Made by a program: the position numbers and the translations under genes. From a virus: 16,671 nucleotides of DNA. How positions within the stretch are numbered: the first letter of the stretch is position 1; every line of letters begins with the position of its first letter. Location of the stretch: IMG/VR virus record IMGVR_UViG_3300045988_068193. The stretch is one strand, 5' to 3'. The notes beneath the pieces are model-generated. The model saw only the letters and a list, made by a program, of their open reading frames with translations, was not told the DNA's origin and did no database searches. Of this stretch, positions 1 through 16,671 are shown piece by piece.

Positions 1-38
1 CCCAGAGGTCCATGGTTCAAATCCATGCCCCGCTACCA
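1..38 (+). tRNA. 3' portion of a tRNA gene, probably tRNA-Met-like. The anticodon and 5' half lie left of the window.
   Basis: The visible parts are: CCCAG (anticodon-stem 3' strand with CCC, as in initiator-type tRNA-Met), AGGTC variable loop, T-arm CATGG-TTCAAAT-CCATG, acceptor 3' strand CCCCGCT, discriminator A and an encoded CCA ending at 38. The copy at attR has no matching 5' acceptor strand upstream, so the intact gene must be the one at attL. Confidence 0.6.
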
Positions 39-55
39 CTTGACCGTCGTTCCCA
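1..55 (+). repeat. attL: direct repeat identical to 16617..16671; its length is limited by the window edges
   Basis: Character-by-character identity of 1..55 with 16617..16671. The repeat contains a tRNA 3' end. Confidence 0.9.
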
Positions 56-366
56 TTATCGGAACGGCGGTTTTTTAATATCTGCTCGGCCTTCATCGGC
101 GTTAAATCGGTCCTTAGCAGCGTCTCAAGACCGACTCCGAAGAAATCGGCGGCGTTGCACATATCCTCAAAGAACCATGTTTGCTTGTTTTGAAGCATCT
201 TTGAGAGAGCCTGAGGTACTTTATCCATACACTCGGCCAGATCCTTCTTCTTCTTGCGAGATACCGCTAAGAGCAAATTAATGTTAGCGACAGCGATTTT
301 TTGCCGCTCTAGTCCAGTACTTGTTTTTCTAAGCATTGTGTTAACCATACCTTCATTATAAACCAT
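1..366 (-). CDS. cI-like XRE-family HTH repressor; the 3' end is open at the window edge and no stop codon is present
   Basis: I translated the minus frame by hand. It is open from 426 down to 1. The product reads MVYNEGMVNTMLRKTSTGLERQKIAVANINLLLAVSRKKKKDLAECMDKVPQALSKMLQNKQTWFFEDMCNAADFFGVGLETLLRTDLTPMKAEQILKNRRSDNGNDGQVVAGHGFEPWTSG... and has a typical HTH_3-like helix pattern. Possible starts are ATG 366, 348 or 336. ATG 348 lies 6 nt after a TATAAT (360..355), which is compatible with a leaderless mRNA. The gene is divergent from a cro-like gene and co-oriented with int. Confidence 0.7.
   Translation of the reverse strand, partial: MVYNEGMVNTMLRKTSTGLERQKIAVANINLLLAVSRKKKKDLAECMDKVPQALSKMLQNKQTWFFEDMCNAADFFGVGLETLLRTDLTPMKAEQILKNRRSDNGNDGQVVAGHGFEPWTSG
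44..76 (+). terminator. Rho-independent terminator of the tRNA gene
   Basis: A 10-bp stem pairs CCGTCGTTCC (44..53) with GGAACGGCGG (61..70), including one G-U pair. The loop is 7 nt and the stem is followed by TTTTTT (71..76). Confidence 0.6.
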
Positions 367-432
367 AGGTTTAGTTGTGACGACACGCGGCAGATTTGAA
401 ATGTCTAAGCACCCGTGCTTTACTGATTAACT
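367..432. promoter_or_regulatory. Divergent genetic-switch region with back-to-back promoters and a candidate operator
   Basis: Plus strand: TTGAAA (396..401), 17-nt spacer, TTTACT (419..424), 8 nt before the GTG at 433. Minus strand: TCGTCA (383..378), 17-nt spacer, TATAAT (360..355). A 12-bp palindrome AGCAC-CC-GTGCT (408..419) sits in the plus-promoter spacer and overlaps the -10. Confidence 0.45.
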
Positions 433-669
433 GTGAGTTTAGCAATCAATGAACAACAAACTATCGCCAAGCAGGTTCGCGGCAAGTTGCGTGCAAATCA
501 CGTCACGCAACGAGAGCTAGCGGACTCTGTGGGAATGAGCGAACAAGCGTTGTCGAACAAGCTTCGCGGCCTGAAGAACTTCACACTGCGTGATGTGTCG
601 CGTATAGCCGACTTCTTCGACGTTTCCACCGATTTCGTGCTCGGCCGTGAGCCATTGGGGGTGAAGTAA
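433..669 (+). CDS. Cro-like XRE-family HTH DNA-binding protein
   Basis: The 78-aa product contains QVRGKLRANHVTQRELADSVGMSEQALSNKLRG...FTLRDVSRIADFFDVSTDFVLG, a classic HTH_3 signature. It has a GTG start and is divergent from the repressor. Confidence 0.75.
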   Translation: MSLAINEQQTIAKQVRGKLRANHVTQRELADSVGMSEQALSNKLRGLKNFTLRDVSRIADFFDVSTDFVLGREPLGVK

Positions 670-1856: not shown

Positions 1857-1858
1857 CC

Positions 1859-2412: not shown

Positions 2413-2754
2413 ATGGGTTATTCGGTCGATTACAAGCCAACAAGCAGACGTGCCAAGAGGACGGTGCCGAAGAACAAGGCACAGCGCACGAAGGACATCA
2501 AGAACGCAATCCGTTGGAACATCGGGCAGTTGGAGCATGACACCATTGGCACCGACTCGGTACAGCGTCCCATGGTCATCGGCATTCTTCGGCTGAACCG
2601 CATCAGTCCGCACGCCGACCCGTCCGGCGATAACACCTTCCAGCAGCTGATCGCCGAGGGTTGGGTGCAGCGCCCGAAGCGTATCGGCGGCGTGCAGTGT
2701 TTCGACCGCGCAGACCTGATTAGATCGTTGAAGGCTTATGCGGGGGTGGCGTGA
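2413..2754 (+). CDS. Hypothetical basic protein (113 aa)
   Basis: A GAGG SD lies 8 nt upstream. The N-terminus is Lys/Arg-rich. The ORF is coupled to the next ORF through a TGATG overlap. Confidence 0.6.
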   Translation: MGYSVDYKPTSRRAKRTVPKNKAQRTKDIKNAIRWNIGQLEHDTIGTDSVQRPMVIGILRLNRISPHADPSGDNTFQQLIAEGWVQRPKRIGGVQCFDRADLIRSLKAYAGVA

Positions 2755-2945
2755 TGAATCCAAGGGCGAAACTGACCACGGCGCAGGCCGCACGGTACCT
2801 GCATAAGTCACAACGGCAGATGGAACGCATGAGGGCGGACGGCACCGGGCCGACGTGGTTCAAAGCGGGCGACGCGATCAACAGTCCGTGCCTGTACGAG
2901 CTGGCCGACCTTGACATGTGGGTGCGTGGGCAGAAGGCGAAGTGA
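2751..2945 (+). CDS. Excisionase/AlpA/MerR-type HTH DNA-binding protein (Xis-like)
   Basis: The product contains LTTAQAARYLHKSQRQMERMRADGTGPTWFKAGD....YELADLDMWV, matching the short excisionase-family HTH_17 pattern. The likely start is the ATG at 2754. Confidence 0.6.
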   Translation: MMNPRAKLTTAQAARYLHKSQRQMERMRADGTGPTWFKAGDAINSPCLYELADLDMWVRGQKAK

Positions 2946-2946
2946 G

Positions 2947-3666: not shown

Positions 3667-3827
3667 GCCTGTTTTTTAAACACGCGGCCGGCCAAAAGAC
3701 CCCGCGCCCAGTTTTTTCTCCCCCTGAACATAAATAAAAAGCCGCAAAACGTTGGAATACCAACGAAATGCGGCGTATCGCTTTCAAAAAACGAAGATAC
3801 ACCATGTTTGTGATTGGAGCAACCGTT

Positions 3828-4139: not shown

Positions 4140-5571
4140 AGGCGGCACCAAGCGCAACCCCGACCGGCGTACCGACGGCGGCCGGTTGGCCGCTGTTGCG
4201 CGAATGATGGGAACGCCGCTTATCCCTTGGCAACGGTACGTGGCGGACGTGGCGTGTGAGATCGACCCCGACACCGGGAGCTTCTATTACGACACGGTGG
4301 TGGTCAGCACGCCGCGTCAGTGCGGCAAGTCGGCGCTGGTGGACGGCTCCGACACGTACAACGCGAGTCTTGGCCGTCGCCGGCGCATCGCCTACGCGGC
4401 GCAGACCGGCAAGGACGCAGAAGACCACTTCAAGGAATACGCCGAGGCCATGAAGGCGAGTCGGCTGGTGCAGAAGGTGGACAAGTTCCGCTTTAGTAAC
4501 GGCAACATGTCGGTGACTTTCGGCAATGGCAGCACCATCAGCCCCATGGCCATGACCAAGATAGCCGGCCACGGCAAACAGTTCGACAAGGTGACCATAG
4601 ATGAGGCGTTCAGCCTGACCAAGGACGCCGGCGACACCATCATGGACGCCATCGTACCGACCATGAACACGCGACTTAAGCGCACCGGCATTACCGCGCA
4701 ACGGTGGATTACCTCGACCGAGGGCACCGCCGAAAGTACGTACTTCAATACGCTGTTGGACGGGTTGCGCGCCGGCGATGTGCCCGAACGTACCTGTTGG
4801 TTCGACTTCGGCATACCGGCCGACGCCGACCCCGAAGACCTCGAAACGATCATGCTGTACCATCCCGCTGCCGGCTACCTGTGGTACAAGCCCCAATTGC
4901 ATGACTTCCGCGAGGGCTTCGGCGACAACGTGGCCGGGTGGGCGCGTGCCTTCGGCAACCGACGCGACGAAGGAATCACCGACCGCGTGATAGACGAAGC
5001 GACATGGACGGCAACCGCCGTCGCCCCCATCGAACCGGACGCATTGGGCGACCGCCCGGTGGTGTTCGGCGTGGCCGTGGACGTGGACAGCACGCACACC
5101 AGCATATCGGCCGGCATCCTGAACATTGACGGCACCATAACCACGCAACTGATCGAAACACTGGACGGCACCGGGTACGCGCCAACCGAGCTTGTTAGAT
5201 TATGCGCAGCGTATGGCGCTCCGGTGGTGATAGATTCGCGCGGCACCGCCGCCGACCTCGCCGACCGGCTGCATCACATGACCGACCACAACGGCGACCC
5301 CTCGCTATCGTTCGTGGACATGGACGCCGGCGACTACCTGACCACCGGCCAAAGCTATGTCAGCGGCTTGGCCAACAAGGCGATATGGCACGCCGCCGAC
5401 CCCGACCTTGACGCAAGCGCGGCCAACTCGGCACGCAAATGGGCCGGCGACGCATGGCGCGTGAGCCGACGCGGTTCCACCGGCCTAACCAGCCCCTTGG
5501 AATCGTGCATGTTGGCCGCATGGGGCGCAGCCCACCGCCCCGAAGAGTCGGGGCCGCTGCAAATATTCTGA
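4129..5571 (+). CDS. terL: Terminase large subunit
   Basis: The 480-aa product has a Walker A-like VSTPRQCGKS, a Walker B-like VTIDEA, and a C-terminal nuclease-type region. Its position is canonical. Confidence 0.9.
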   Translation: MRIRGGTKRNPDRRTDGGRLAAVARMMGTPLIPWQRYVADVACEIDPDTGSFYYDTVVVSTPRQCGKSALVDGSDTYNASLGRRRRIAYAAQTGKDAEDHFKEYAEAMKASRLVQKVDKFRFSNGNMSVTFGNGSTISPMAMTKIAGHGKQFDKVTIDEAFSLTKDAGDTIMDAIVPTMNTRLKRTGITAQRWITSTEGTAESTYFNTLLDGLRAGDVPERTCWFDFGIPADADPEDLETIMLYHPAAGYLWYKPQLHDFREGFGDNVAGWARAFGNRRDEGITDRVIDEATWTATAVAPIEPDALGDRPVVFGVAVDVDSTHTSISAGILNIDGTITTQLIETLDGTGYAPTELVRLCAAYGAPVVIDSRGTAADLADRLHHMTDHNGDPSLSFVDMDAGDYLTTGQSYVSGLANKAIWHAADPDLDASAANSARKWAGDAWRVSRRGSTGLTSPLESCMLAAWGAAHRPEESGPLQIF

Positions 5572-5576
5572 CCCTT

Positions 5577-5616
5577 TTGGCGGCACTTGGCGGTACTTGG
5601 CGGCACTTGGCGGCAC
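5577..5616 (+). repeat. Four tandem 10-bp repeats, TTGGCGG(C/T)AC
   Basis: Read directly: 5577..5586, 5587..5596 (C to T variant), 5597..5606 and 5607..5616. They lie in the 75-nt gap between the terL stop and the portal start. Confidence 0.9.
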
Positions 5617-5646
5617 GGTGCTGGACGGGGCCGGCCTGCGGGCAGC

Positions 5647-6789
5647 ATGATTGTCGGCATGACTGACCGATTGACATTGTGGGAGCGGGTGAAACTCGCG
5701 GGCCGGGTATTGACCCGTAGCGCGGTGGACGACATGCCCGAGGGCATCCGCCCGCCGTCGCGCGTCGCGGATTGCGACCCGTTGTCGCTGTCCACGGTTT
5801 TCCGTGGCGTGCAGGTGCTTCAGACCGCCATCACCGGTTTGCCGATTCACGAAATGCGCGGCGGCGTGAAGCTCGACACGGTGTCGCCGCTCGTGTTGCA
5901 GCCGGACGTGAACCGTAGCCGTCGTGACTTTTTGGCCGACCTTGTGGCAAGCATGGTGTTGGATGGCAACGCATTCGTAAGGCTGGTGTCGTATGCGGGC
6001 GACGTGGTGTCGTGCGAGGTGCTGCCCCCGCACCTTGTTGTCGTGTCCGACGACGGACAAGACCCGGCCGCCCCGCGCCTGCGCTACAGCTACTTGGGGA
6101 CGGATTACACGCCCGATCAGATCGTGCATCTGAAGTTTCTGAACGTGCCCGGCAGGCTGCGTGGTCTTGGCCCGATCAGCGCGGCGCGCGAAGAGGTGGA
6201 AGGCGCGAAGATGGCCCGCGACTACAAGGCACGCTTCTACACCGACAGCTCGAACCTTAAGGGCTATTTGAAGACCGACAAGAAGGTTACGCCGGAGTAC
6301 GCGAAGCAGGCGAAGACCGATTGGAAGGCGTCGGGCACGGCCGCCGACATCAAGGTGTTGGGCGAGAACCTCACCTACGTTCCGCTCGACATGAAGCCGG
6401 CCGATTTGCAGTTTTTGGAGACGCAGAAATTCGATACAACGCAGATCGCCCGACTGTTGGGCATCCCCGCGTCAATCATGCTTGCCGCCGTCGATGGCAG
6501 CAACCTCACCTACAGCAACATCGAGCAATCGTGGATTGAGTTCGCCGACTATACGTTGGCCGCCTACGCGGGCGAGATTGAAGAGTTGTTCAATCGCCTG
6601 TTGCCGCGCGGCCGGACGGCAGCGTTCGACTGGGATTCGAGCCGTCGCGCCGACATGGCGGACCGGTTCAACGCCTACCAGACCGCCATAGCGTCCGGTT
6701 GGATGACGGTGGACGAGATCAGGGCGCGCGAGGCCCTGCCGCCATTGGATACGACAACAACAACCGAAGGGAGCAACGATGAAGCGTGA
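5647..6789 (+). CDS. Portal protein (HK97 family)
   Basis: The ~380-aa product follows TerL and shows a portal-like sequence pattern (..GNAFVRL.., ..FLETQKFDTTQIARLLGIPASIM..). The start is uncertain: ATG 5647 or 5659. The track's TTG start at 5587 lies inside the repeats. Confidence 0.85.
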   Translation: MIVGMTDRLTLWERVKLAGRVLTRSAVDDMPEGIRPPSRVADCDPLSLSTVFRGVQVLQTAITGLPIHEMRGGVKLDTVSPLVLQPDVNRSRRDFLADLVASMVLDGNAFVRLVSYAGDVVSCEVLPPHLVVVSDDGQDPAAPRLRYSYLGTDYTPDQIVHLKFLNVPGRLRGLGPISAAREEVEGAKMARDYKARFYTDSSNLKGYLKTDKKVTPEYAKQAKTDWKASGTAADIKVLGENLTYVPLDMKPADLQFLETQKFDTTQIARLLGIPASIMLAAVDGSNLTYSNIEQSWIEFADYTLAAYAGEIEELFNRLLPRGRTAAFDWDSSRRADMADRFNAYQTAIASGWMTVDEIRAREALPPLDTTTTTEGSNDEA

Positions 6790-8347
6790 AATAGGGTTCA
6801 GGGGCGTGTGCCTGCGCTCGGCCGACGACGGCGACGGGCGCACCTTGGAAGGCGTGGCCGTGCCATATGGGCAGATCATCGACACATGGGACGGTGCCGA
6901 GACCTTCGACCCTGACTGCCGCTTCGACGACATCGAATCCGCGAAGCTGTGCTACCAGCACGGCGAACTGATCGGCCGCATCACCGCCGCCGAATCACGG
7001 GAAGACGGCCTGCACATCACCGCCAGGATAAGCGACACGCAGCTTGGCCGCGACGTGGTGAACCTCTTGAAGGACGGCGCTCTGGACTCATTGTCGGTGG
7101 GATTCGTCCCGATCGAGGACGAACGCGACAAGGCCGGGATAACCCATCGCAGGCGCGTCAGGCTGTTGGAAACAAGCGTGGTGAGCTGGCCCGCATACGA
7201 GGCCGCGAAAATCACCGGACAGCGAAGCGAGACCCTGACCGAAGAACCAACCGACAACAAGGAAAGCGAGGACACGAAAGTGGACAAGGAACTGGAAGAG
7301 ACGCTGGACGCCATCAAGGACGAACAGCGCAGTTTGAAGGCCGCGTTGGCCAAGGGCGGCACCACCGAACCGCCGAAACAGATCGGCAGCGAGTACCGCA
7401 CCGCCGGCGACTACCTGCAGGCGCTCTATCGCGGCGACGAAACGGCGGTGCAGTTGATGCACGAATGCCGCGACCTGATCGCCACGGGCGACACCGGCAA
7501 CAAGGTGGCATGGATTGCGGATGAACTGCGCCTGATCGAACAGCGGCGCAAGGTCACCAACCTGCTGACCCACGACACGCTGCCAGACAAGGGCATGACC
7601 ATGGAATACAACGTGGTCAGCACCGACACCACCACGGTGGGCAAGCAGGCCGGCGAGGGCGACGCGCTCCAGTTCGGCAAGGTGACCTTCGGCACCAAGA
7701 GCGTGACCATCGACACCTACGGCGGCTACACCACCCTGTCGCGTCAGGTGATCGAACGCTCGACCACGCCAATGCTGAACACGGCTCTTGCCGCCCTGCG
7801 CAACGCCTACGCGAAGGCCACCGAAACGGCCGTGCGCACCTACCTGTACGACACCATCGCCGCACAGCGCGACGCATCGACCGACGCGAACAAGATCGAC
7901 GCGCCGGCCGCGTTGGCCGCAATGACCATCGACCAGTGGGCCGGCCTCATCATGGACGCCGCCGAGTTGGCCGACGACCGTAACGTGAACCTCACCCGCT
8001 TGGGAGTCAGCAAGGATGTCATGGCCGCCCTGATCGCCCTGAAGGACTCGGGCAGTCGTTTCTTCGACCTGTCCGGCGACGGTAGCGATACGTTGGGCGA
8101 CTTCGATTTGACCGGCATCGCCGGCCGTTTCCTGCGCCTTCCCGTGCAGATGCTGCCCAACGCGCCCGAAGGCACCGCGTGCTTCATCGACCCCGAGTCG
8201 GTGACCGTGTGGGAATCGGGCGGCCCGACCCAGCTCAGCGACGGCGACCCGACCAAGCTCACCGAAAACTATTCAGTGTACGGATACCTGGCCGTGGCGG
8301 CAACACAGCCGCTCGGTCTTATCCCCGTCAAGTTCGCCACGGCCTGA
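6779..8347 (+). CDS. Prohead protease - scaffold-like linker - HK97-type major capsid protein, as a single fused ORF
   Basis: The N-terminal ~150 aa resemble an HK97 prohead protease (LEGVAVPYG...H.....G.......DSLSVGF....). An acidic coiled-coil linker follows (EEPTDNKESEDTKVDKELEETLDAIKDEQRSLKAAL). The ~320-aa C-terminal region is capsid-like. A GAAGGGAG SD precedes the ATG at 6779. Confidence 0.8.
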   Translation: MKREIGFRGVCLRSADDGDGRTLEGVAVPYGQIIDTWDGAETFDPDCRFDDIESAKLCYQHGELIGRITAAESREDGLHITARISDTQLGRDVVNLLKDGALDSLSVGFVPIEDERDKAGITHRRRVRLLETSVVSWPAYEAAKITGQRSETLTEEPTDNKESEDTKVDKELEETLDAIKDEQRSLKAALAKGGTTEPPKQIGSEYRTAGDYLQALYRGDETAVQLMHECRDLIATGDTGNKVAWIADELRLIEQRRKVTNLLTHDTLPDKGMTMEYNVVSTDTTTVGKQAGEGDALQFGKVTFGTKSVTIDTYGGYTTLSRQVIERSTTPMLNTALAALRNAYAKATETAVRTYLYDTIAAQRDASTDANKIDAPAALAAMTIDQWAGLIMDAAELADDRNVNLTRLGVSKDVMAALIALKDSGSRFFDLSGDGSDTLGDFDLTGIAGRFLRLPVQMLPNAPEGTACFIDPESVTVWESGGPTQLSDGDPTKLTENYSVYGYLAVAATQPLGLIPVKFATA

Positions 8348-8349
8348 CC

Positions 8350-8682
8350 ATGACGGACAACTGGACTGACTACGAGCCGGCGGTACGCGATGAGATCGGC
8401 GTGCCGACCGGCGACAACGACCGCGTGCAGCGGGCGACCATCGCCGCCATGGGGTACGTGGACGGTGCCATAGGCGGCTACACGGTGTCGAACACCGTGC
8501 GCGCCGACTGCATCACGTCATGTGCCGCCGACCTGTACAACGCCCGCGACGCCCGATTGGGCGTGATGGACGTGGGCGACGGCACGGTGGAACCATACCG
8601 CATCAGCACCGACCCTCTCAGATCGGTATGGCCGAAACTGAACGCGGTGGGCGTGCCAACGGGCGGGCTGGTGATCGCATGA
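8350..8682 (+). CDS. Head-tail connector (gp6-like) protein
   Basis: 110 aa, immediately after the capsid gene. Size and position are typical of this class. Confidence 0.55.
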   Translation: MTDNWTDYEPAVRDEIGVPTGDNDRVQRATIAAMGYVDGAIGGYTVSNTVRADCITSCAADLYNARDARLGVMDVGDGTVEPYRISTDPLRSVWPKLNAVGVPTGGLVIA

Positions 8683-9047
8683 ACATCCAGGAACAACGCG
8701 CCGCCCTCATGGACACGCTCGCCGACATGCTCGACGGGCTCGTGAGCAGCATCAGCCTCGACGCCCAACTGGTACGCCCCGCCGCCGGCAAGGTGGCCGT
8801 GTTCATCGAACCTCCGACCGTGGAATGGCCGTCATGGGGCCCGCCGGAACCGGTCTGGACGTTGGACGTCATCGCCGGCACGCCGGCCACGCAGCCATCC
8901 GCAGTCGATGACATCCTCACAGCGCTCGACCGGCTCGCCGAACGTGGCCTGAACATCCAGAAGGCCACGCCCGCGACTTGGAACCTCGCAGGAGCCGGCA
9001 CGCTGGCGGCCTACCAGGTCGTGCTGAACGCTCTGGAAACCGAATAA
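8679..9047 (+). CDS. Head-tail joining or tail-terminator-like structural protein
   Basis: 122 aa, ATGA-coupled to the upstream gene. The call is by position only. Confidence 0.4.
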   Translation: MNIQEQRAALMDTLADMLDGLVSSISLDAQLVRPAAGKVAVFIEPPTVEWPSWGPPEPVWTLDVIAGTPATQPSAVDDILTALDRLAERGLNIQKATPATWNLAGAGTLAAYQVVLNALETE

Positions 9048-9067
9048 GACAAGGAAAGGAAAAAATC

Positions 9068-9481
9068 ATGGCTGGAAAGATCCGCACGCTCGGACCAGGC
9101 ATCTTCAAAATCACCGACACCGAAAACGGCAGGGACTTCAGCGCCGACCTGACCAAGGCGCAGCTAAACCCGTCGAACAGCAGCGACGACCCGACCACCT
9201 ACCTCGACGGATCAGAGGAGACGAACACCACGACAACATGGACGTTCGAGGGCACCGTGGGCGACGACTTCAGCGAGGACGGTCTGGCCGTCTGGCTCTT
9301 CGACCACAAGGGCGAGACGCTGCCGGCCCAGTTCGTCCCGAACAATACCGGCAAGATCCAGTGGACCTTCAACGTCACCATCGCGCCAATCGCCATCGGC
9401 GGCGACGTCAAATCGAAGAACACGAACGATCTGAGCTTCGCCGTCACGAACGTCGCCCACGCACCGTACACGGGCAAGTGA
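9068..9481 (+). CDS. Probable major tail protein
   Basis: 137 aa with a strong SD (AAGGAAAGGA). The product is Thr/Asn-rich and beta-type. It lies upstream of the chaperone and tape measure genes. Confidence 0.55.
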   Translation: MAGKIRTLGPGIFKITDTENGRDFSADLTKAQLNPSNSSDDPTTYLDGSEETNTTTTWTFEGTVGDDFSEDGLAVWLFDHKGETLPAQFVPNNTGKIQWTFNVTIAPIAIGGDVKSKNTNDLSFAVTNVAHAPYTGK

Positions 9482-9487
9482 TGAGTG

Positions 9488-9871
9488 ATGGCTGACAAGG
9501 CATTGATGGTCGTCGGCCAGAAACGCTTCGTTCAGACGATGCGCAAGGCCGGCGCGGACATGGACGACCTGAAGGAAGTGAACCGCGCGGCAGCGCAGAT
9601 CGCACTGCCCGCCGTCCGCAACCTCGCCCCACGAGGCAAAACCGGCCGGCTGGCCGGCAGCCTGCGTGTCGGAGCGACGAAACGCGCCGGCGTCATCCGC
9701 GCCGGCCGCAAGGCCGTGCCCTACGCAGGACCAGTCAACTACGGGTGGCCCGCCCGCCACATCAAGCCACGTCTCTTCGTCAACAACGGCGTCGCCTCCA
9801 CCGAGAGCCAATGGCAAAAGGTCTACAAGGACTTCATCGACAAGACACTGAAGCAAGTGAAAGGAAAATAA
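9488..9871 (+). CDS. HK97 gp10-family head-tail/tail completion protein
   Basis: The pattern ...APRGKTGRLAGSLRVG....AGVIRAG....YAGPVNYG... is typical of the HK97 gp10 family. An alternative GTG start is at 9485. Confidence 0.6.
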   Translation: MADKALMVVGQKRFVQTMRKAGADMDDLKEVNRAAAQIALPAVRNLAPRGKTGRLAGSLRVGATKRAGVIRAGRKAVPYAGPVNYGWPARHIKPRLFVNNGVASTESQWQKVYKDFIDKTLKQVKGK

Positions 9872-10143
9872 TGGCAACCACGAGAATCACCTACACGGAC
9901 GGTACCAGCGAGACCGTGCCGATCACGATGCGCGCGACATGCAAGGCCGAGGCGCACGCCATCGACGTGGGCTGGGGGCCAATCACCCAGTCACCCGTCC
10001 GTTCCGGCGCATACGCGGCCTACGCGGCCCTGCGCATGGCCGGCCGCAATCTGCCAGACTTCGAGCATTGGCTGGACACCGTGGCCTCATTCGACCTCGC
10101 TGCTGCGAAGGAGGAACCGGAAGAGGGAAACCCTACGGACTAG
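9871..10143 (+). CDS. Tail assembly chaperone (G-like)
   Basis: 90 aa, directly upstream of the tape measure gene, with a TAATG overlap. It carries a slippery heptamer near its 3' end. Confidence 0.7.
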   Translation: MATTRITYTDGTSETVPITMRATCKAEAHAIDVGWGPITQSPVRSGAYAAYAALRMAGRNLPDFEHWLDTVASFDLAAAKEEPEEGNPTD

Positions 10144-10298
10144 CCGCGTGGCCACAAGACTCGCTCGGCCGTCTCTCGTTCCTCCTGGCCAACCGTTTCG
10201 GCGGCACGCCATGGCAGTGGAGGAACGAGGCCGACGAATTGGATTGGGGCACCGGACTGGCCGAACTGCTCAAGGAAGCCGAATCACGGAAGGAGTGA
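9871..10298 (+). CDS. Tail assembly chaperone -1 frameshift product (GT-like)
   Basis: After a -1 slip at 10125..10131, the reading frame continues as GKPYGLAAWPQDSLGRLSFLLANRFGGTPWQWRNEADELDWGTGLAELLKEAESRKE. It ends 3 nt before the tape measure start. Confidence 0.6.
10125..10131 (+). promoter_or_regulatory. Programmed -1 ribosomal frameshift slippery heptamer G GGA AAC
   Basis: This is a canonical X XXY YYZ motif in the zero frame of 9871..10143, 10 nt before its stop. The -1 frame is open to 10298. Confidence 0.65.
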
Positions 10299-10301
10299 AA
10301 C

Positions 10302-12170
10302 GTGGCGCACAGCGCGATCATGAGCGTGCGCATCACCGGCAACGCCGATGATGCCGTCAAGGCGTTCGAGAAGACCACTACGAAGGCGGCCGCTTTCGGC
10401 AGCGCCATCGGCGGATTGGCCGTCAAGGGCGTGACCGCGCTGTGGGACACGGTAAAGGGCTTCGCCGGCGATGTGGTGAACATGTCGGACAGCACCGACA
10501 AGTTCATGAACACCATGAGCTTCGCCGGCATCGACACCAAAGCCGTGCAGGCAGCCGCGAAGGAAACCCGCAAATACGCCGACGACACCGTGTACGGGCT
10601 CGATGACATCCAGAACACCACCGCGCAGCTCGCGGCAAACGGCATCGGCAACTACATGGAACTGACCGAGGCGGCCGGCAACCTCAACGCGGTGGCCGGA
10701 GGCAACGCCGACAGTTTCAAGAGCGTCGCGATGATGCTCACCCAGACGGCCGGCGCGGGAAAATTGACCACGGAGAACTGGAACCAGCTTGCCGACGCCA
10801 TTCCGGGCGCGTCCGGCAAACTCCAGGAGGCGCTGCTGAAGAACGGCGCGTATACGGGCAACTTCCGCGACGCCATGTCCAAGGGCGAGATCACCGCAGA
10901 CGAGTTCAACAAGGCGCTCATGGACCTCGGCATGACCGACGTGGCGAAACAGGCCGCGACATCGACCAGCACCATCGAGGGAGCCATGGGAAACCTCGAA
11001 GCCGCCGTGACCGGCGGTCTGACCGACGCGTTCAACCTGTTCAAACCGGCCGTGACGGGCGGCATCAACGCCGCATCGGCCGCCGTGACCAGCCTCGCTA
11101 CCACCGGTGTCCAGGGATTGCAGACGTTCTTCGGCCAGGTCAAGGACACCGGAGCGTTCACCTCGCTGCAGTCGGCCGCGCAGTCGGTCGGCGGTGGACT
11201 CCAATCACTGTGGACCGGCATCATGGCCGTCGTGAACGCGATGACCGGAGGACAGCCCGCCGGAACCGCGTTCGGCAACGCGCTCAACACCGTCGCAACC
11301 GCCGCGCAGACGGTCGGCGGCTGGCTGAAGACCGCAGGCAACTGGATCAGCCAGAATCTGGATCTTGTGACCCCGCTCGTCGCCGCGATCGGCGGCGCAG
11401 TGGCAGCCGTCACCGCCGTGACCACCGCAATGCAGGTCGCCGCCGTCGCTCAGGCGGTGCTCAACGCGGTCATGGCCGCGAACCCGATCATGCTGGTCAT
11501 CACGCTCATCGCCGCGCTCACGGCCGTACTCACCTACTTCTTTACCTGCACCAACACCGGCCGGGCCGTGTGGTCGAGCTTCACGAGTTTCCTGGGCTCC
11601 TGCGTGCAGGGCATCACCGGTTTCTTCTCCGGCCTCGGCTCCACCATCGTCGGCATCTTCAGCTCGGCGGCGAACGGTGCTAGGAACGCGTGGAACGGCG
11701 TGGTCGGCTGGTTCCGAGGCCTGCCGGGCACCATTGGCGGTTTCTTCTCCAACGCCGGCAGCATCCTCGTCAACGCAGGCGCAAGCATCATCAACGGCTT
11801 CTGGGACGGCCTCAAAGGCGCCTGGAACAACGTGACCGGCTGGATCAGCGGCATCGGCGACTGGATCAAGGCCCACAAAGGCCCGATCAGCTACGACCGT
11901 CGCCTGCTCATCCCCGCCGGCCAGGCCATCATGACCGGCTTCGCCCAGGGCCTCAACACCGGGTTCGACAGCAACGTCGAAACCGCCATCGGCCGCGCCA
12001 ACCGCAGACTAGCGGCCATGCCACTCAACCTCTCCGCCCAAGGCAACACGGCCACGCCAGCCGTGATCAACACCTGGAACGTGGAAATCAACGGCGAGGT
12101 CATCGACAAGGACGGCACCGCCAAGGCCATCAAACGGCTCCTGGCCGACTACGACGCAAGGAGGTCATGA
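10302..12170 (+). CDS. Tape measure protein
   Basis: 622 aa, Ala/Gly/Thr-rich, with a central hydrophobic segment. It is the largest tail gene and follows the chaperones. A GGAAGGAG SD precedes the GTG at 10302. Confidence 0.9.
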   Translation: MAHSAIMSVRITGNADDAVKAFEKTTTKAAAFGSAIGGLAVKGVTALWDTVKGFAGDVVNMSDSTDKFMNTMSFAGIDTKAVQAAAKETRKYADDTVYGLDDIQNTTAQLAANGIGNYMELTEAAGNLNAVAGGNADSFKSVAMMLTQTAGAGKLTTENWNQLADAIPGASGKLQEALLKNGAYTGNFRDAMSKGEITADEFNKALMDLGMTDVAKQAATSTSTIEGAMGNLEAAVTGGLTDAFNLFKPAVTGGINAASAAVTSLATTGVQGLQTFFGQVKDTGAFTSLQSAAQSVGGGLQSLWTGIMAVVNAMTGGQPAGTAFGNALNTVATAAQTVGGWLKTAGNWISQNLDLVTPLVAAIGGAVAAVTAVTTAMQVAAVAQAVLNAVMAANPIMLVITLIAALTAVLTYFFTCTNTGRAVWSSFTSFLGSCVQGITGFFSGLGSTIVGIFSSAANGARNAWNGVVGWFRGLPGTIGGFFSNAGSILVNAGASIINGFWDGLKGAWNNVTGWISGIGDWIKAHKGPISYDRRLLIPAGQAIMTGFAQGLNTGFDSNVETAIGRANRRLAAMPLNLSAQGNTATPAVINTWNVEINGEVIDKDGTAKAIKRLLADYDARRS

Positions 12171-12175
12171 GATAG

Positions 12176-13714
12176 ATGCAGCAATGCTTCATGTTCATCG
12201 ACACAGGCAACGGCACCGGCTGGACACCGGTGAACGATTCCACCAAGGATGTAGCGGCCCTGGACTCTTTCACCATCGATTGGGGAAGTGACGGCATCGA
12301 CGAACAACCCGAACCTGCCGTGATGTCGTTCACCCTCCGCGACCGCACCGGACGGCTCGCAGGCCAGGCATTGACACTGGCCGGCATGAAAGTGGTCGTC
12401 CAATTCTCCAACCAGCCTCGATGGATGGACCTGACGCCAGCGATGGGCTGCTGGCGCGATCTGCGCATCCCCATCGACTCGCTCCACAAGATGTATTCGC
12501 CAGACTCGCCAGACTCGCCAGACTCGCCAGACTCGCCAGACTCGCCATCCGAAACAATGTTCGCCGGCAGCGTGTCCACCGGCGGCAGCATCGAACCGGC
12601 CAGCGACGGCGGATGGCTGCTCAAACTCTCCGCCACATCGAGGATGGCCATATGGAAACGCCTGCAATCCCAAGGACCGACAGACACGGCCGCGAAATGG
12701 AACGGCGCGCACTGGATAGGCACGCCATCCGCACGCCTCAAGGAGATGAACCGCAGGGCCTCGGCGCAGGGAGCGCCGGAAGCCCAACTGGACGGGCTCG
12801 CCCTGCCGTCAAGCGTCGCACCATACACGCCATCCGACCACCCATCGCAGCTCGACCTGCTGCACCGGCTCACCGTCGGGCCACGACTCCCTCAATGGCA
12901 CGAAGTCTACGACGGCGCGGCATCCACCATCAGGCCGCTGTTCCTCGCCGACCCAATCGCCGTGCATCTGTCAACCGATGGCCGACTCAACGTCCTCACC
13001 GACGGAGAGACACGATACGCACTCTCGGCGGCCGACATCGAGGCATCGACGGATCTGAGCATCACCGAACCTTTGACACAGGTCGTCATCAACGCGAAAC
13101 GCGTCAAATCGGACAACGGCAAGCTCTCTTTCGACGACGTGGAGATCACGATGGGAGACCAGGACCGTCTGCCACCACAATTGACCGTCATGCAGAAGAG
13201 CCTCACCGTCGATTCCGACATGCTCGCCGTGGACGACTCGGGCGGTGTATGGAACAGCGGCGGCACCTCGAACGTCAGCGCCACGGACCGCGCCAACATC
13301 GCGCAATGGCTCGAATCGCACGACCTGCGCATGGTACCGGAGACAGTGACGTTCAACAGCACGCGAATCGACCCGGCACGCCGGCCATGGCTGTACAAGG
13401 CAAGCCCATCCGGCCCATTCATCATCGTCAAGGCCAAATCGTCGGCCCTGACCGGCTCAGACGGCCGACCGTCCTTCACCGGCCCCATCACGACCATCGG
13501 CGGGACGCTCTCATACCGGTGGCGTTCGGGCAAGCCCACACTCACCCAGGAAGCGACGCTGGCCGCGCTCCGGCCGCTGCTGACGGAACGGATCACATGG
13601 GCCGACCTGCCCACCCTCAGCTGGCAGCAGCTCGACCTGCACATCTGCGACCTCTCGATGATCCAGATCATCGACACTTCTTCGCCCACCGCCGAAAAGG
13701 AAGGAACACAATGA
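12176..13714 (+). CDS. Minor tail protein (distal tail / Dit-like)
   Basis: 512 aa, immediately after the tape measure gene. It contains an internal (SPD)n repeat. Confidence 0.6.
   Translation: MQQCFMFIDTGNGTGWTPVNDSTKDVAALDSFTIDWGSDGIDEQPEPAVMSFTLRDRTGRLAGQALTLAGMKVVVQFSNQPRWMDLTPAMGCWRDLRIPIDSLHKMYSPDSPDSPDSPDSPDSPSETMFAGSVSTGGSIEPASDGGWLLKLSATSRMAIWKRLQSQGPTDTAAKWNGAHWIGTPSARLKEMNRRASAQGAPEAQLDGLALPSSVAPYTPSDHPSQLDLLHRLTVGPRLPQWHEVYDGAASTIRPLFLADPIAVHLSTDGRLNVLTDGETRYALSAADIEASTDLSITEPLTQVVINAKRVKSDNGKLSFDDVEITMGDQDRLPPQLTVMQKSLTVDSDMLAVDDSGGVWNSGGTSNVSATDRANIAQWLESHDLRMVPETVTFNSTRIDPARRPWLYKASPSGPFIIVKAKSSALTGSDGRPSFTGPITTIGGTLSYRWRSGKPTLTQEATLAALRPLLTERITWADLPTLSWQQLDLHICDLSMIQIIDTSSPTAEKEGTQ
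12497..12547 (+). repeat. Perfect 9-bp tandem repeat TCGCCAGAC, ~5.7 copies, in frame
   Basis: Read directly. It encodes SPDSPDSPDSPDSPDSP within 12176..13714. Confidence 0.95.
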
Positions 13715-14319
13715 CAGCAACAACACCCATCTACGGGCTCTCATATCCGGAAGGCTCCGACCTCGTGTCATCTGCGGCGGGGTCGTTCAAGGCCATGGCC
13801 GACACCTTCGAGACCGCGCTGGACACCGTCGACAGACGCTCCACCCCAGCCGGTGCGACACCTGTGATCGCCACCACGCTCGAATCGCTGAAGGCGCAGA
13901 CGGCCACGGTCGGCCAGACCGGCTTCGTCACCTCGGACGGCGACAACACCGGCCCGTACATCTGGGACGGGACCAGCTGGCATCACGCACACTGGTACAC
14001 CGCCGATGACAAAGCCAAAACAACGCTCGTCAACAAATCAGGCTGGAAATGCGAATACATGATGAAACATGGATTCGTTTACGTCACGGTTAATCTTTCG
14101 GACAGTGGCACCAAAGGATGGAGCGAAAGCCAAATGCCAGGCACACTCCCCGAAGAAGCACGACCGCCGCTCGAACTGGATTTCGCACCGATGTGCTCCA
14201 ACAACAATTCAATCGGTGTATTCATCGTCAAACCCACCGGAGTCATCGTCTACTCGCGTCGCGGAGGCGGGCAAATCTCCGACAATCGTTATGCAACCAT
14301 GATGTGGCCGGCCGCATGA
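13711..14319 (+). CDS. Minor tail protein / candidate receptor-binding protein
   Basis: 202 aa, ATGA-coupled, and the last tail gene before the lysis cassette. The N-terminus PIYGLSYPEGSDL resembles conserved actinophage minor-tail N-termini. The C-terminal half is visibly AT-richer. Confidence 0.5.
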   Translation: MTATTPIYGLSYPEGSDLVSSAAGSFKAMADTFETALDTVDRRSTPAGATPVIATTLESLKAQTATVGQTGFVTSDGDNTGPYIWDGTSWHHAHWYTADDKAKTTLVNKSGWKCEYMMKHGFVYVTVNLSDSGTKGWSESQMPGTLPEEARPPLELDFAPMCSNNNSIGVFIVKPTGVIVYSRRGGGQISDNRYATMMWPAA

Positions 14320-14543
14320 CGGATCTCATCATCGCCATCGTCGGCGCGGTCGGCGCGGTCGTCGGCGCACTGGTCTCCACCCTCTCGGCCGCCGCCAAGA
14401 ACAAGATGGAAGCCTACAGGCTCGCACAGAAGATGCAGGCCGACAACCAACGCCTCTGGCAATGGAACCGGCAACTCATCGACCACATCTACCGCCGCGC
14501 CCCACCACCACCGCCGGAACCACCTGAAGACCTTTTCAACTAA
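14316..14543 (+). CDS. Small membrane protein (holin-like or lysis accessory)
   Basis: 75 aa with an N-terminal transmembrane helix (LIIAIVGAVGAVVGALVSTL) and a C-terminal PPPPPEPPE tail. It is ATGA-coupled and lies directly upstream of the endolysin. Confidence 0.5.
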   Translation: MTDLIIAIVGAVGAVVGALVSTLSAAAKNKMEAYRLAQKMQADNQRLWQWNRQLIDHIYRRAPPPPPEPPEDLFN

Positions 14544-14556
14544 GAACGGAGCCAAC

Positions 14557-15354
14557 ATGAGCGACATCATCTGGAAAGGAAGCCCGAACCACTACGTGGG
14601 ACGCAACGGCTACGGCGTCACCCACATCACTTTGCACATCATGGTCGGATACCTAGCCGGCACCGATGCCACGTTCGCCAACCAGTCAAGCCGCGCCTCG
14701 GCCCACTACGGCATCGGCGCGACCGGAGAGATCCACCAATACGTGTCGGAACTCGACGGCAGTTATTCCGACGCGAACTACGCGTCTAACAATTCGACCA
14801 TCAGCATCGAGCATGAGGGAGGAATGTCCAACGGCGCGGTCTGCACCCAGGCGTGCATCGACGCAAGCGCGCGCCTCTGCGCCGACATCGCGCTCAGGTA
14901 CGGGTGGACGAAACTGTGGCACGACGGGCTGAAAGGCAACGTATGGCTACACCGGGAGATCCCAGGCACAGACCACCTCGCCTGCCCCGACCTCGCACCC
15001 AACGGCCTGCCATACAAGCAGATCATCGACAAAGCAAATCAGATACTCGAAGGAGGCTCCATGTCAAACGCAGGAGACGAAGTATGGAACTGGGCCTACA
15101 AGCCCAACGGGAAGAACGCCACACCGGGCGGCAACATGTACAACCTGCTCGCCTACGAGCTGCCGCAGCGTGTCCGTGACAGCATCATGCAATACAGCTA
15201 CAAGGGCTCAGCACCGGGCGGCAACATCTACAACACAATCTGCTTCGAGATCCCAGGAATGCTGAAACAGCTCACCAAAACCATCGAGACGCAGCAGCAG
15301 CAGATCAGCGAACTGTCCGAAAAAATCAGCAAGCTGGAAGGGACCACGAAATGA
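14557..15354 (+). CDS. Endolysin: N-acetylmuramoyl-L-alanine amidase (Amidase_2/PGRP type) with a C-terminal repeat module
   Basis: The product contains HITLHIMVG.....F......ASAHYGI...GEIHQYV......SDANY..NN.TISIEHEGG ... WLHREIPGTDHLACP, typical of zinc-amidase endolysins. Confidence 0.85.
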   Translation: MSDIIWKGSPNHYVGRNGYGVTHITLHIMVGYLAGTDATFANQSSRASAHYGIGATGEIHQYVSELDGSYSDANYASNNSTISIEHEGGMSNGAVCTQACIDASARLCADIALRYGWTKLWHDGLKGNVWLHREIPGTDHLACPDLAPNGLPYKQIIDKANQILEGGSMSNAGDEVWNWAYKPNGKNATPGGNMYNLLAYELPQRVRDSIMQYSYKGSAPGGNIYNTICFEIPGMLKQLTKTIETQQQQISELSEKISKLEGTTK

Positions 15355-15701
15355 CCGACACGACGGAAAACCGACTACCGACGGCCAACACAACGGAATA
15401 TGACGCAATGCCAGTCTCGGCGCAGATCATGGCCGCCACCGATGACGACGCCGAGGCATCGACGCCGAGAATCGACGGCGGCACAATATCCAGATTCCTC
15501 GTGCTGCTCCTTGCGCTTGTCAACCAGGCACTGACCATGTTCGGCCATCCGGTGCTCAACATCGATGACACGACCATCACGCAGCTCGTGAGCCTCGCAT
15601 GGACAGCCGGCAGCGCCATCTGGTGCTACTGGAAGGACAACGACGTGACCACGAAGGCTCGCGTCAAAAAGGCGAGGCTATCGGCACGTCACGCGGCCTA
15701 A
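15351..15701 (+). CDS. Holin (Phage_holin_1 / phi-LC3-like)
   Basis: 116 aa with the pattern ISRFLVLLLALVNQALTMFG......TITQLVSLAWTAGSAIWCYWKDNDVTTKA, resembling phi-LC3-family holins. It is ATGA-coupled to the endolysin. Confidence 0.65.
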   Translation: MTDTTENRLPTANTTEYDAMPVSAQIMAATDDDAEASTPRIDGGTISRFLVLLLALVNQALTMFGHPVLNIDDTTITQLVSLAWTAGSAIWCYWKDNDVTTKARVKKARLSARHAA

Positions 15702-16525
15702 ATAAGACGGACGGCCGCCATGGCTTCTCTCAGACGGCCGTCCGGCATCGCCACGTAATGCTCCGTGGTCTCAACCGATTCATGGCCGAGCAGTTCCGCG
15801 ACCACGAACAGGTCGTGTGTGGCGGCGTATGCCGTGGTGGCAAAACGGTGCCGCAACGTGTGCGCGGCGTACCCGTCCGGCAGCAGGCGGCTGATGTGGT
15901 CCCCGATATAGGACTCCTCGACGTGGCCGCCGAACCGGCCAGGGAACAGGTAGCCCCGCGCGTCCATGATGATGCCGGCCAGATCGTCCGGCAACGGCAC
16001 TATGCGCTGCTTGTCGCCTTTGCCGCGCACGATCAATGACCGGCCGGCGCTGTCTGCCACCACGTCATCGCTGTGAACCCGCGCAATCTCGCCACGCCGC
16101 AGTCCGCACTCCGCGCCCAGCCGGATCATGAGTCTTTCCGACGTCGTGGCCATCTTCATCGCCGCAGCGATGTAACGGTCCGGGCATGGTCTGGGATGCG
16201 CGTGCGGCTTCTTCACCCTTGGCACGTCCAGACTCGGATCATCCGACCGTCTGCCGCTTTTATGCAGCCATCGGAAGAACGACGATATGGTGTTCCTGTA
16301 CGCTTTGCGCGTCTCGGGTTTCCATTGCTGCCGTGCGAACGCCTGCACGATCTGCTCCGTGGTCACGTCTTCGGGACCTGATGGCATGAGCAATGTCGCG
16401 AGATGCACCATCTTGTATCGACGGCTTTTGATTGTCTGTGCTGATAGGCCGGCCGCCCTAAGGGTGTCAGTCCACCCGTTGATGCTTTTGCGCCATGGGA
16501 CCGGTGCGCTGATCTTGTTTCTCAT
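15698..16525 (-). CDS. int: Tyrosine recombinase / phage integrase
   Basis: The 275-aa product has an N-terminal SAM-like core-binding domain. Catalytic signatures are LRRGEIARV (Arg), HTLRHRFAT (H-x-x-R) and LLGHESVETTEHY (His...Tyr). It is adjacent to attR. Confidence 0.9.
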   Translation of the reverse strand: MRNKISAPVPWRKSINGWTDTLRAAGLSAQTIKSRRYKMVHLATLLMPSGPEDVTTEQIVQAFARQQWKPETRKAYRNTISSFFRWLHKSGRRSDDPSLDVPRVKKPHAHPRPCPDRYIAAAMKMATTSERLMIRLGAECGLRRGEIARVHSDDVVADSAGRSLIVRGKGDKQRIVPLPDDLAGIIMDARGYLFPGRFGGHVEESYIGDHISRLLPDGYAAHTLRHRFATTAYAATHDLFVVAELLGHESVETTEHYVAMPDGRLREAMAAVRLI

Positions 16526-16560
16526 GATTCATCATGCACCCCTAGCTTTAAGCGACTAAA

Positions 16561-16580
16561 CTGAGCTTGGATAAGCTCAG
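16561..16580. repeat. Perfect 8-bp stem / 4-nt loop hairpin between int and attR
   Basis: CTGAGCTT-GGAT-AAGCTCAG, read directly. Confidence 0.7.
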
Positions 16581-16586
16581 AAGCCC

Positions 16587-16643
16587 CATGGATTTGAACC
16601 TTGGACCTCTGGTGTCCCCAGAGGTCCATGGTTCAAATCCATG
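16587..16643. repeat. 57-nt palindrome: a phage-side inverted copy of the att core / tRNA T-arm facing attR
   Basis: 16587..16612 pairs with 16618..16643 at 25 of 26 positions (the single mismatch is 16601/16629). The spacer is 5 nt, TGTCC. Confidence 0.85.
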
Positions 16644-16671
16644 CCCCGCTACCACTTGACCGTCGTTCCCA
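16617..16671 (+). repeat. attR: direct repeat identical to 1..55, carrying a displaced tRNA 3' fragment
   Basis: It is identical to 1..55. The sequence upstream lacks the AGCGGGG-type 5' acceptor strand, so this copy is not a full tRNA gene. Confidence 0.9.

Follow-up and report, generated by a model that had tools for sequence, protein, structure and literature searches.

Does the repressor gene of this small temperate phage encode one protein in the free phage and another in the lysogen? The question is raised by a repressor reading frame (rep) at the left end of the window, the whole 16,671-nt stretch of DNA analysed here (61% GC). When the two ends of the window are joined, the frame continues into a C-terminus that resembles a degradation tag and stops shortly upstream of the integrase gene (int). 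A switch of this architecture is known from the mycobacteriophages BPs, Brujita, and Charlie (Clusters G, I, N, and P; Broussard et al. 2013 Mol Cell; PMC3694055). In BPs-type systems attP lies inside rep, and the prophage form of Rep (gp33-103) is stable and active. The promoter Prep drives both rep and int, Int itself is unstable, and there is no xis, cII, or cIII (PMC3694055, PMC4557955). A preliminary description of the window had put forward two ideas: that a tag-like tail is present only on the attP form of the repressor, and that rep and int form a leftward unit that is broken by integration. Both are supported by their match to the published model. Our analysis indicates that the window, from a temperate siphovirus with a 16.6-kb genome and hosts likely in the Bifidobacterium catenulatum group, probably carries an integration-dependent immunity cassette (cro/rep-attP-int).

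The window is the circular form of the phage

The first and last 55 bp of the window are an exact direct repeat (Table 1), and removal of one copy leaves a circle of 16,616 bp. Positions 1–38 cover the 3′ strand of the anticodon stem, the T-arm, the acceptor, and the CCA of a tRNA, and match the 3′ part of the host tRNA-Met in L054 exactly. The preliminary description had taken the window to be a prophage bounded by att cores. On that premise the repeats would be attL and attR, and the full-length Rep described below would be merely hypothetical for this molecule. It fits the premise that the repeat begins exactly where the host tRNA identity starts, at the 3′ strand of the anticodon stem. However, the repeat does not stop at the CCA but continues for 17 nt of phage-specific terminator sequence, and phage-type sequence (TGGGAACGACGGTCAAGTGGT) flanks its right-hand copy. 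In relatives, true int-side junctions of prophages turn to host sequence there, the core copy being preceded by the host tRNA terminator (...CCGGTTTCAATTGGT or ...CCGGAAACCAAAAGGTTTCCGGTTTCAATTGGT). The published att sites are also 39 bp long (PMC6109161), as against the 55 bp of the repeat. An overlap of 55 bp is what de Bruijn assembly typically leaves, and the contig would break at this point if the graph branched at the att boundary.

An independent MEGAHIT contig from the human gut (L089; ENA ERZ920157; 16,743 nt) matches the window at 100% identity throughout and is circularly permuted. Its terminal overlap of 127 nt gives a unit of exactly 16,616 bp, and it passes uninterrupted through the window junction. 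Two further contigs, L057 (99% identical to the window) and L020, are likewise continuous across the junction. Since the repeat runs past the CCA, its right-hand copy has a phage flank, and L089 closes to a circle, we read the window as the circular phage form with an assembly overlap; an integrated prophage between attL and attR is extremely improbable. The error in the premise is harmless, as the joined reading frame is the one that the circular molecule actually encodes, and the attP junction inferred in the preliminary description is the junction actually sequenced in L089.

Table 1. Coordinates of the features of the cassette and of the window ends (positions in the 16,671-nt window)
Feature	Position	Strand	Remarks
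Terminal repeat, copy 1	1..55	+	1–38, tRNA-Met 3′ part, att common core; 39–55, phage-specific, start of terminator stem
rep, codons 1–112	1..336	-	Translation from ATG 336
Intrinsic-terminator-like hairpin and T-run	42..72	+	Directly after the tRNA 3′ end; consensus scan
Promoter-like site, candidate Prep	355..383	-	TCGTCA-17-TATAAT upstream of rep; sigma-70-like by consensus match only
cro-like HTH_3 gene	433..669	+	78 aa, GTG start, divergent from rep; Pfam HTH_3 8e-9
int, tyrosine integrase	15698..16525	-	275 aa; Pfam Phage_integrase 1e-18, PHROG 1
rep–int spacer	16526..16547	-	22 nt; AGCTAGGGGTGCATGATGAATC
rep tail, in the repressor of the circular (attP) form only	16548..16616	-	22 codons (DTRGPRFKSMGLLSLSKLSLVA) and TAA
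Second small hairpin	16561..16580	-	CTGAGCTT-ATCC-AAGCTCAG, within the tail coding sequence
26-bp inverted repeat	16587–16612 / 16618–16643	.	25/26 complementary, 5-nt loop
Terminal repeat, copy 2	16617..16671	+	Identical 55 bp; assembly overlap of the circular genome

The repressor reading frame crosses the junction

Retranslation of the circular form gives a minus-strand frame that runs from the ATG at 336 across 1/16616 to a TAA at 16550..16548 and encodes 134 aa. Codon 112 (G) occupies 3..1 and codon 113 (D) 16616..16614. The protein ends ...EPWTSG followed across the junction by the tail given in Table 1 (in a longer stretch, ...VAGHGFEPWTSG followed by DTRGPRFKSMGLLSLSKLSLVA). The last three codons before the TAA are TTA GTC GCT (L-V-A). 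All coordinates of the preliminary description, which had the repressor frame cross the junction, end in LVA, and stop 22 nt short of the int start codon at 16525, are correct. There are three in-frame start options for rep (336, 348, and 366), and public gene calls take 366, which yields 144 aa; this ambiguity is without effect on the C-terminus. The exact LVA-ended protein (P0067; 144 aa, upstream ATG) is found on at least 10 contigs from several samples. These contigs range from 2.3 to 16.7 kb (7 of 10 blocks in the 10–20 kb class), and the 275-aa int always lies 22 nt downstream.

Rep matches the transcriptional regulators of PHROG 1373 in a profile search (E=7e-4), and its homologues carry HTH_3/HTH_26 domains. 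Residues ~5–90 form an XRE/Cro-C1-type helix-turn-helix (HTH) domain. AlphaFold2 gave a pLDDT of ~90 over residues 11–90 and <50 over residues 92–134. The predicted fold matches the DNA-binding domains of SinR, P22 c2, and DdrO (TM to target 0.76–0.84). Residues 92–134, which comprise the core-encoded segment and the tail, are predicted to be disordered. The attP core lies within the ORF near its 3′ end (codons 94–112 of 134), and from codon 94 the ORF is the antisense of the tRNA-derived core. Because the core starts beyond the folded domain, recombination swaps only the unstructured end of Rep and leaves the HTH domain untouched. The linker of Rep (...KNRRSDNGNDG) is encoded on the minus strand of the terminator-like hairpin at 42..72, which would terminate the reconstituted tRNA gene in the lysogen.

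Integrated relatives carry the repressor without the tail

On long bacterial contigs, relatives of the phage are inserted in a tRNA-Met(CAT) gene beside metA (HTS) and the ATP synthase operon. The target looks like an initiator tRNA-Met (C1:U72 mismatch, three G-C pairs closing the anticodon stem). In these integrated relatives the 3′ end of rep reads GAA CCA TGG ACC TCT GGG TTA TGA, so that the protein ends ...EPWTSGL; the TGA stop is from the complement of the CAT anticodon loop. One such prophage-form protein (P0070) is the same as the window Rep at all shared residues through ...TSG and ends TSGL. Another (P0068; B. catenulatum DSM 16992, KFI54813.1) differs from the window Rep by one residue (GQLVAG vs. 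GQVVAG) and has the same end. Both were found on contigs of up to 2 Mb. A second matched pair consists of P0016 (prophage form, ...TSGL; 92 blocks listed) and P0020 (viral form, on ~16-kb contigs, ...YVLAA). The tagged repressor allele of the circular form and the untagged allele of the integrated form of the same phages are thus both present in public assemblies.

The att core is identical to the published B. breve sites save for the final base. It ends ...CTCTGGGT in the published sites and in host-flanked rep-side junctions, and ...CTCTGGGG in the circular form of the window. Integrated relatives also show an A/T polymorphism within the core, with CCATGG (functional T-stem) on the rep side and CCTTGG on the int side; the attR and attL of published B. 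breve prophages are split in the same way (Mavrich et al. 2018, PMC6109161). In one class of relatives (type E, below) the common core of attP is reduced to GTGGTAGCGGGGCATGGA. A crossover at the anticodon loop was considered and rejected, as attP and attB differ there. This difference, the A/T marker that separates the rep and int sides, and the short core of type E together place strand exchange in the T-loop/acceptor part of the tRNA.

The last residues of the tail are conserved

The open frame and the degron-like end read in the window recur in free-form relatives, where we observed five distinct tail sequences that keep the frame open to an L-A-A-type end. Type A, to which the window belongs, is DTRGPRFKSMGLLSLS[K/E]L[S/I]L[A/T/V]A; types B, C, and D are YPRGPRSKPMPRLILSLAA, LLPRGPKVQIHEATPLSLILAA, and NVVAQRSTVQIHEARLFDFILAA; and type E is an unrelated 44-residue tail (...YVLAA). 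The types have different lengths and different stop codons (TAA, TGA, or TAG), and they use different reading registers with respect to homologous DNA. All five finish in L-A-A, or in L-T-A or L-V-A. The terminal codons vary across the types: leucine is TTA, CTA, or TTG, the middle codon is GCG or GCC (ACC or ACG for threonine, GTC for valine), and the last is GCT, GCC, GCA, or GCG. In an alignment of 19 viral-form proteins with N-terminal HTH domains that are 41–87% identical, L132 and A134 are invariant, and they are the sole invariant tail positions. Five unlike tails with a shared L-x-A end and synonymous codon variation argue for selection on the peptide end. The pattern indicates selection on the last three residues of Rep, as expected of a free C-terminal recognition motif.

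LAA is the common allele in relatives, and the LVA of the window is a minority allele that arises by a single C-to-T change relative to L057 (GCC to GTC). Its presence on at least 10 contigs shows that it is no error. LVA also occurs once, in P0040, within another rep lineage that is unrelated, where the other full-length cluster members, among those listed, end in LAA or LTA. Judged by its sequence, the viral-form tail is ssrA-like, and it is predicted to be accessible and unstructured, as an ssrA-type degron needs. Like the tmRNA (ssrA) tag and the LVA variant engineered from it, it has a disordered C-terminus with L-[A/V]-A at the end; both LAA and LVA lead to fast ClpXP-dependent turnover in E. 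coli (PMC3511798). The half-life of LacI-LVA in E. coli is ~13 min, compared with ~8 min for LAA (PMC3511798); LVA is nearly as destabilising as LAA there, and its activity is documented in E. coli only. Unlike the ssrA tag, the tail is encoded in the genome and is not added by trans-translation, and its upstream part is without likeness to the ssrA tag or the SspB site. The tmRNA tag of a B. breve plasmid ends ...FTLAA (PMC10832533). For the chromosomal Bifidobacterium tag, a scan of genome contigs with the published tmRNA att core returned Bacilli, Mollicutes, and other unrelated MAGs only, and the tmRNAs found in a scan of viral contigs included none assignable to Bifidobacterium.

Could the tail be a passive read-through of attP, with selection acting on DNA (integrase-binding sites and the 26-bp inverted repeat) and the LVA end without function? 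In this GC-rich genome, 22 or more open codons in a row are to be expected by chance (P ~0.65), the interior residues of the tail vary freely (K/E, S/I, L/P, R/W), and the inverted repeat, itself conserved at the DNA level, codes for the first half of the tail and so partly constrains it. The tail in the window alone is accordingly weak evidence. The comparative evidence is strong: the same kind of end is reached in different lengths, registers, and stop codons and with synonymous changes, type E arrives at ...YVLAA without any inverted repeat, and L[AVT]A precedes just 2 of the 672 stops in all six frames of the window. We consider passive read-through very unlikely. A functional tail that is not a degron, and that alters oligomerisation, operator choice, or Prep activation in the viral form, would draw on the fairly conserved interiors of type A tails and on BPs, in which the stabilised long form modestly raised Prep activity and C-terminal residues may contact RNA polymerase (PMC4557955). 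But both BPs forms bind DNA alike (PMC4557955), the tail is predicted to be disordered, and invariance confined to a terminal L and A bears the mark of a free C-terminus recognised by ClpX, not that of an interaction surface, which makes this reading most improbable. A putative degron at the end of the viral repressor is the interpretation that we favour.

int and the proposed rep–int unit

The start of int is fixed by a TGA that lies in frame two codons ahead of the ATG at 16525. Int consists of SAM-like and catalytic domains only and has no arm-binding domain. It is homologous to the BPs-type integrases, with 42.8–43.2% identity to gp32 of Cluster G mycobacteriophages over 97% of its length, and it is 43–44% identical to the integrases of Gordonia phage EricDab and Curtobacterium phage Barebow. 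The window Int ends ...AAVRLI and those of relatives end LAG, LAV, LGS, LDV, or RLG, so no ssrA-like or AA-type end is seen. The signal on BPs-type Int is not a strict motif; Angel Int ends ...LVAGF. L057 carries a natural deletion of int.

In the circular form rep (336 to 16548) and int (16525 to 15698) follow one another on the minus strand, and a 96-nt intergenic region separates rep from the divergent cro-like gene. All viral-form relatives share this layout, with a rep–int spacing of 14–33 nt in all five types. Consensus scans placed a promoter-like site upstream of rep only (Table 1) and revealed none in the spacer and tail, no terminator-like site between the rep stop and int, and no T-tract after either of the two hairpins in this region. 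A terminator-like hairpin (15719..15706) overlaps the last int codons. By analogy with BPs, where Prep drives both genes (PMC3694055, PMC4557955), rep and int are most likely one transcript from Prep in the circular form. That integration separates int from the repressor promoter, as the preliminary description stated, follows directly from the geometry.

The region around the junction is highly structured. A 181-nt junction RNA folds with −83.3 kcal mol−1 (z = −8.3), owing to the 26-bp inverted repeat and a smaller hairpin. The inverted repeat is an inverted duplicate of the anticodon-stem/T-arm segment of the tRNA, and both arms are translated in rep (GHGFEPWTSG and DTRGPRFKSMG). It is kept in tail types A–D and absent from type E. 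Possible compensatory variants were noted (core CCTTGG and arm CCAAGG in L057; core CCATGG and arm CCATGG in L003). Only TTTAG follows the smaller hairpin, which the other tail types do not conserve and the scan did not score as a terminator. Searched by E-value against Rfam, the junction returned no family and only miRNA-hairpin matches below threshold. ARAGORN called a 'tRNA-Gln' at 16559–16654 (96 nt), which we rejected as an artefact of the inverted repeat.

These structures bear on whether rep and int are a simple operon. The rep 3′ hairpins might terminate or attenuate the transcript or be cleaved (for example, by RNase III), and int would then be set post-transcriptionally or from another promoter. 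Such an arrangement touches only the co-transcription half of the model and is compatible with the degron. The stability of the junction RNA with its near-perfect 26-bp stem, the retention of this stem in 4 of 5 attP types, and the position of a possible weak Shine–Dalgarno site in the spacer (a GGGG run 13 nt upstream of int, a poor spacing) speak for it. The lack of T-tracts, scored terminators, and promoter-like sites in the scans speaks against it, as do the short spacing in all types, the unchanged layout of type E phages that have no hairpin, and the precedent of BPs. We regard it as unlikely and favour the single transcript. It is a long shot that the inverted tRNA duplicate in attP is a second regulatory layer and not a relic. 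As RNA, the hairpin in the rep–int mRNA could be cleaved (RNase III type) or stall ribosomes and so uncouple int from rep; it could also yield non-stop rep mRNA, which tmRNA itself would tag. As DNA, the inverted T-arm-like site could be a second binding site for the arm-less integrase and set the directionality of recombination.

Proposed mechanism

The attachment site, the 3′ part of tRNA-Met, lies where the repressor ORF extends into its unstructured C-terminus. In the circle, rep is read through the antisense tRNA segment and its inverted copy, which adds a 22-residue tail with an L-V-A end; most relatives have L-A-A. On the analogy of BPs gp33(136), the tail would mark the viral repressor for ClpXP-type proteolysis, so that immunity would not build up, while int, 22 nt downstream, would be read off the same Prep transcript. 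Integration into tRNA-Met cuts rep from its tail and leaves a tag-free, presumably stable repressor ending ...EPWTSGL. At the same time it moves int ~16 kb away from Prep. The short form of the repressor would then confer immunity. Of this scheme, the gene anatomy, the junction, the two protein forms, the conserved tail end, and the homology of Int are seen in the sequences, and we infer proteolysis, the difference in stability, co-transcription, and immunity through the short form. Several observations count against the model: LVA is not the canonical LAA, Int proteins of the family show no ssrA-like tag, an excisionase may be encoded, Rep has no detectable sequence similarity to deposited phages, part of the tail is constrained as DNA, and the stable hairpins near the end of rep might cause attenuation or processing of the rep–int transcript.

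Comparison with known systems

Like the BPs system, the window has a three-gene cassette (cro/rep-int) with attP in the 3′ end of rep, over an antisense-read tRNA 3′ end (G[FL]EP..T). The viral Rep is the longer form and carries a C-terminal tag in both (136 vs. 103 aa in BPs, 134 vs. 113 aa here), and both have a short, homologous Int (43% identity to Cluster G gp32, phage Angel). Unlike in the BPs system, the sequence of Rep is without detectable similarity. A tblastn search of deposited phages with Rep gave no match; we therefore do not claim homology to BPs Rep, and membership in the system rests on the architecture and on Int. The Bifidobacterium tail has a near-canonical ssrA-type end (LAA/LVA), whereas Rep of Angel (BPs-type, Cluster G) ends ...DKAS, and no tag is evident on the Bifidobacterium phage Int. 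The 26-bp inverted tRNA duplicate in attP, the initiator-like tRNA-Met target, and the small 16.6-kb genome also set the window apart. A possible excisionase (a 64-aa HTH_17 ORF) may be a further difference, given that the minimal BPs model is without xis.

Angel, EricDab, and Barebow share the cro/rep-int layout of the window, and the cro-like gene occupies the position of BPs/Angel gp34 and EricDab gp20. Their Rep proteins are also read through an antisense tRNA T-arm (EGFEPPT, GLEPPT, and DSNPEP; motifs G[FL]EPPT and SNPEP). The C-termini in this set are ...DKAS (Angel), ...RRAS, and ...PPWAA (EricDab). EricDab (16.7 kb) and Barebow (18.3 kb) resemble the window in their small genomes, in providing its best integrase matches, and in a repressor directly upstream of int; they differ in hosts, tRNA targets, and tail sequences. 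EricDab Int has a tag-like end (WAAAA), in contrast to the RLI of the window Int.

The closest precedent is the work of Mavrich et al. (2018) on the ~18-kb B. breve tRNA-Met prophages Bb423phi2 and 689b-1, which were circularised in silico to give a Rep with 18 additional C-terminal residues including an ssrA-like tag (PMC6109161). The window shares with them the att core (TGGTAGCGGGGCATGGATTTGAACC[A/T]TGGACCTCTGGG), the tRNA-Met/metA locus, the ~17–18 kb size class (16,616 bp here), and the placement of rep and int at opposite prophage ends. The 18 residues gained by the published pair fit type B (...YPRGPRSKSMPRLILSLAA), whereas the window is of type A, with 21 extra residues and LVA. The circular form, reconstructed in silico there, is seen directly in metagenomes here. 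A further parallel is the sib retroregulation of lambda int, where the state of att, intact or split, likewise governs a lysogeny gene and makes its expression differ between the circular and the integrated genome. The lambda switch acts through an RNA element past att that destabilises the int mRNA; here the repressor coding sequence itself is altered, and control is proposed to be proteolytic.

The switch is therefore already known from mycobacteriophages (Broussard and Hatfull 2013) and was predicted for the same group of Bifidobacterium prophages (Mavrich et al. 2018, PMC6109161). Our finding correctly rediscovers it in a sister phage whose tail is of type A and whose allele is LVA, and it opens no new biological question. 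A switch that is well characterised in mycobacteriophages is thereby extended to small, abundant phages of Bifidobacterium in the human gut. Beyond the in silico prediction of 2018, the finding adds the sight of both repressor alleles in assemblies and comparative evidence of selection on the last three residues.

The remainder of the genome

The window holds a complete small siphovirus. Pfam and PHROG searches identified an HNH endonuclease, a large terminase, a portal, a protease/major-capsid fusion, a tape measure, an Amidase_2 endolysin, and an SPP1-type holin. Domain and profile searches of the window gave no hits to cII- or cIII-like genes, and PADLOC and Pfam returned nothing for a 203-aa accessory ORF. 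With 26.8 bits, the HTH_17 ORF (2751..2945) fell just short of the cut-off of 27; an excisionase-like protein is a possible product. In a megablast search of the whole window against deposited phages, a single 340-bp tape-measure fragment was the only match. The host is likely a member of the B. catenulatum group and not B. breve.

The minimal cassette (cro/rep-attP-int) measures ~1.7 kb and is a candidate integration vector or recombination-coupled protein-stability switch in Bifidobacterium. The two forms of rep also explain the many differing repressor lengths that gene callers report in these prophages.

Attachment site and strand exchange

The anticodon loop of the target tRNA-Met (CAT) determines where the prophage-form repressor ends. 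Its complement supplies the stop codon (TTA TGA, located in L054, a relative integrated in tRNA-Met), and the repressor therefore ends one residue past the core in every phage of the family that integrates there.

The core carries a natural marker. In the integrated relatives among loci L001-L056, the rep-side core has CCATGG and the int-side core has CCTTGG, a change synonymous in rep; either version occurs in free forms. The core of the type E attP is short (GTGGTAGCGGGGCATGGA). Taken together in these sequence comparisons, the marker and the short type E core locate strand exchange within the T-loop/acceptor region of the tRNA.

Both arms of the inverted duplicate inside attP are translated, and it is kept in four of the five attP types. 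Possible compensatory variants are observed in two related contigs, L057 and L003. An Rfam search with the duplicate gave only miRNA-hairpin matches, all of them sub-threshold. The ‘tRNA-Gln’ reported by ARAGORN at 16559-16654 is a false call that the duplicate produces.

Positions of the features (window coordinates unless a relative is named)
Feature	Position	Strand	Remarks
Cro-like gene start codon	433-435		GTG
203-aa ORF	745-1356	-	Same orientation as rep
64-aa HTH_17 ORF	2751-2945	+	26.8 bits (cut-off 27)
10-nt unit TTGGCGGCAC, about 5 tandem copies	5577-5631		
9-nt tandem repeat GACTCGCCA	12494-12547		Within ORF 12176-13714 (+)
int deletion	L057 5440-5560		Equivalent to window 15719-16447; relative 99% identical to window
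26-bp inverted duplicate of tRNA anticodon-stem/T-arm	16587-16643		Within attP
Core CCATGG	14 / 16630		Compared across loci L001-L056
Prophage-form repressor end, TTA TGA	L054 10396-10401		

Immunity region and variation among relatives

L057 (a 15.9-kb contig from Logan SRR29934091) has lost nearly the whole of int through a clean 727-bp deletion. Despite this loss it retains rep, including the LSLAA tail. Lysogeny is not possible without int if the repressor loses its tag-like tail only on integration, and L057 may thus be a natural, obligately lytic derivative.

The cro-like gene starts with ATG in L057, as against GTG in the window. Because of the GTG start, the 78-aa HTH_3 protein appears in public gene calls for contig L089, which is identical to the window, as no more than a 44-aa fragment.

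The 203-aa ORF had no match in Pfam, PHROG or PADLOC. It is missing from relatives L053-L056, and an 80-aa ORF takes its place in L092-L094. The slot that it occupies, adjoining the immunity region, is variable, and the ORF is a candidate accessory (moron) gene.

Other features

The HTH_17 ORF is directly upstream of the HNH endonuclease gene; its product could be excisionase-like or could be a helper protein in DNA packaging. If it is an excisionase, the system would depart from the minimal three-gene switch. The GACTCGCCA repeat could encode a variable-length linker; the ORF that contains it weakly matches a minor tail protein. The TTGGCGGCAC repeats, whose 10-nt period is not divisible by three, are a possible packaging or regulatory site. 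They lie between the large-terminase stop (5571) and the probable portal start, just 3′ of the former.
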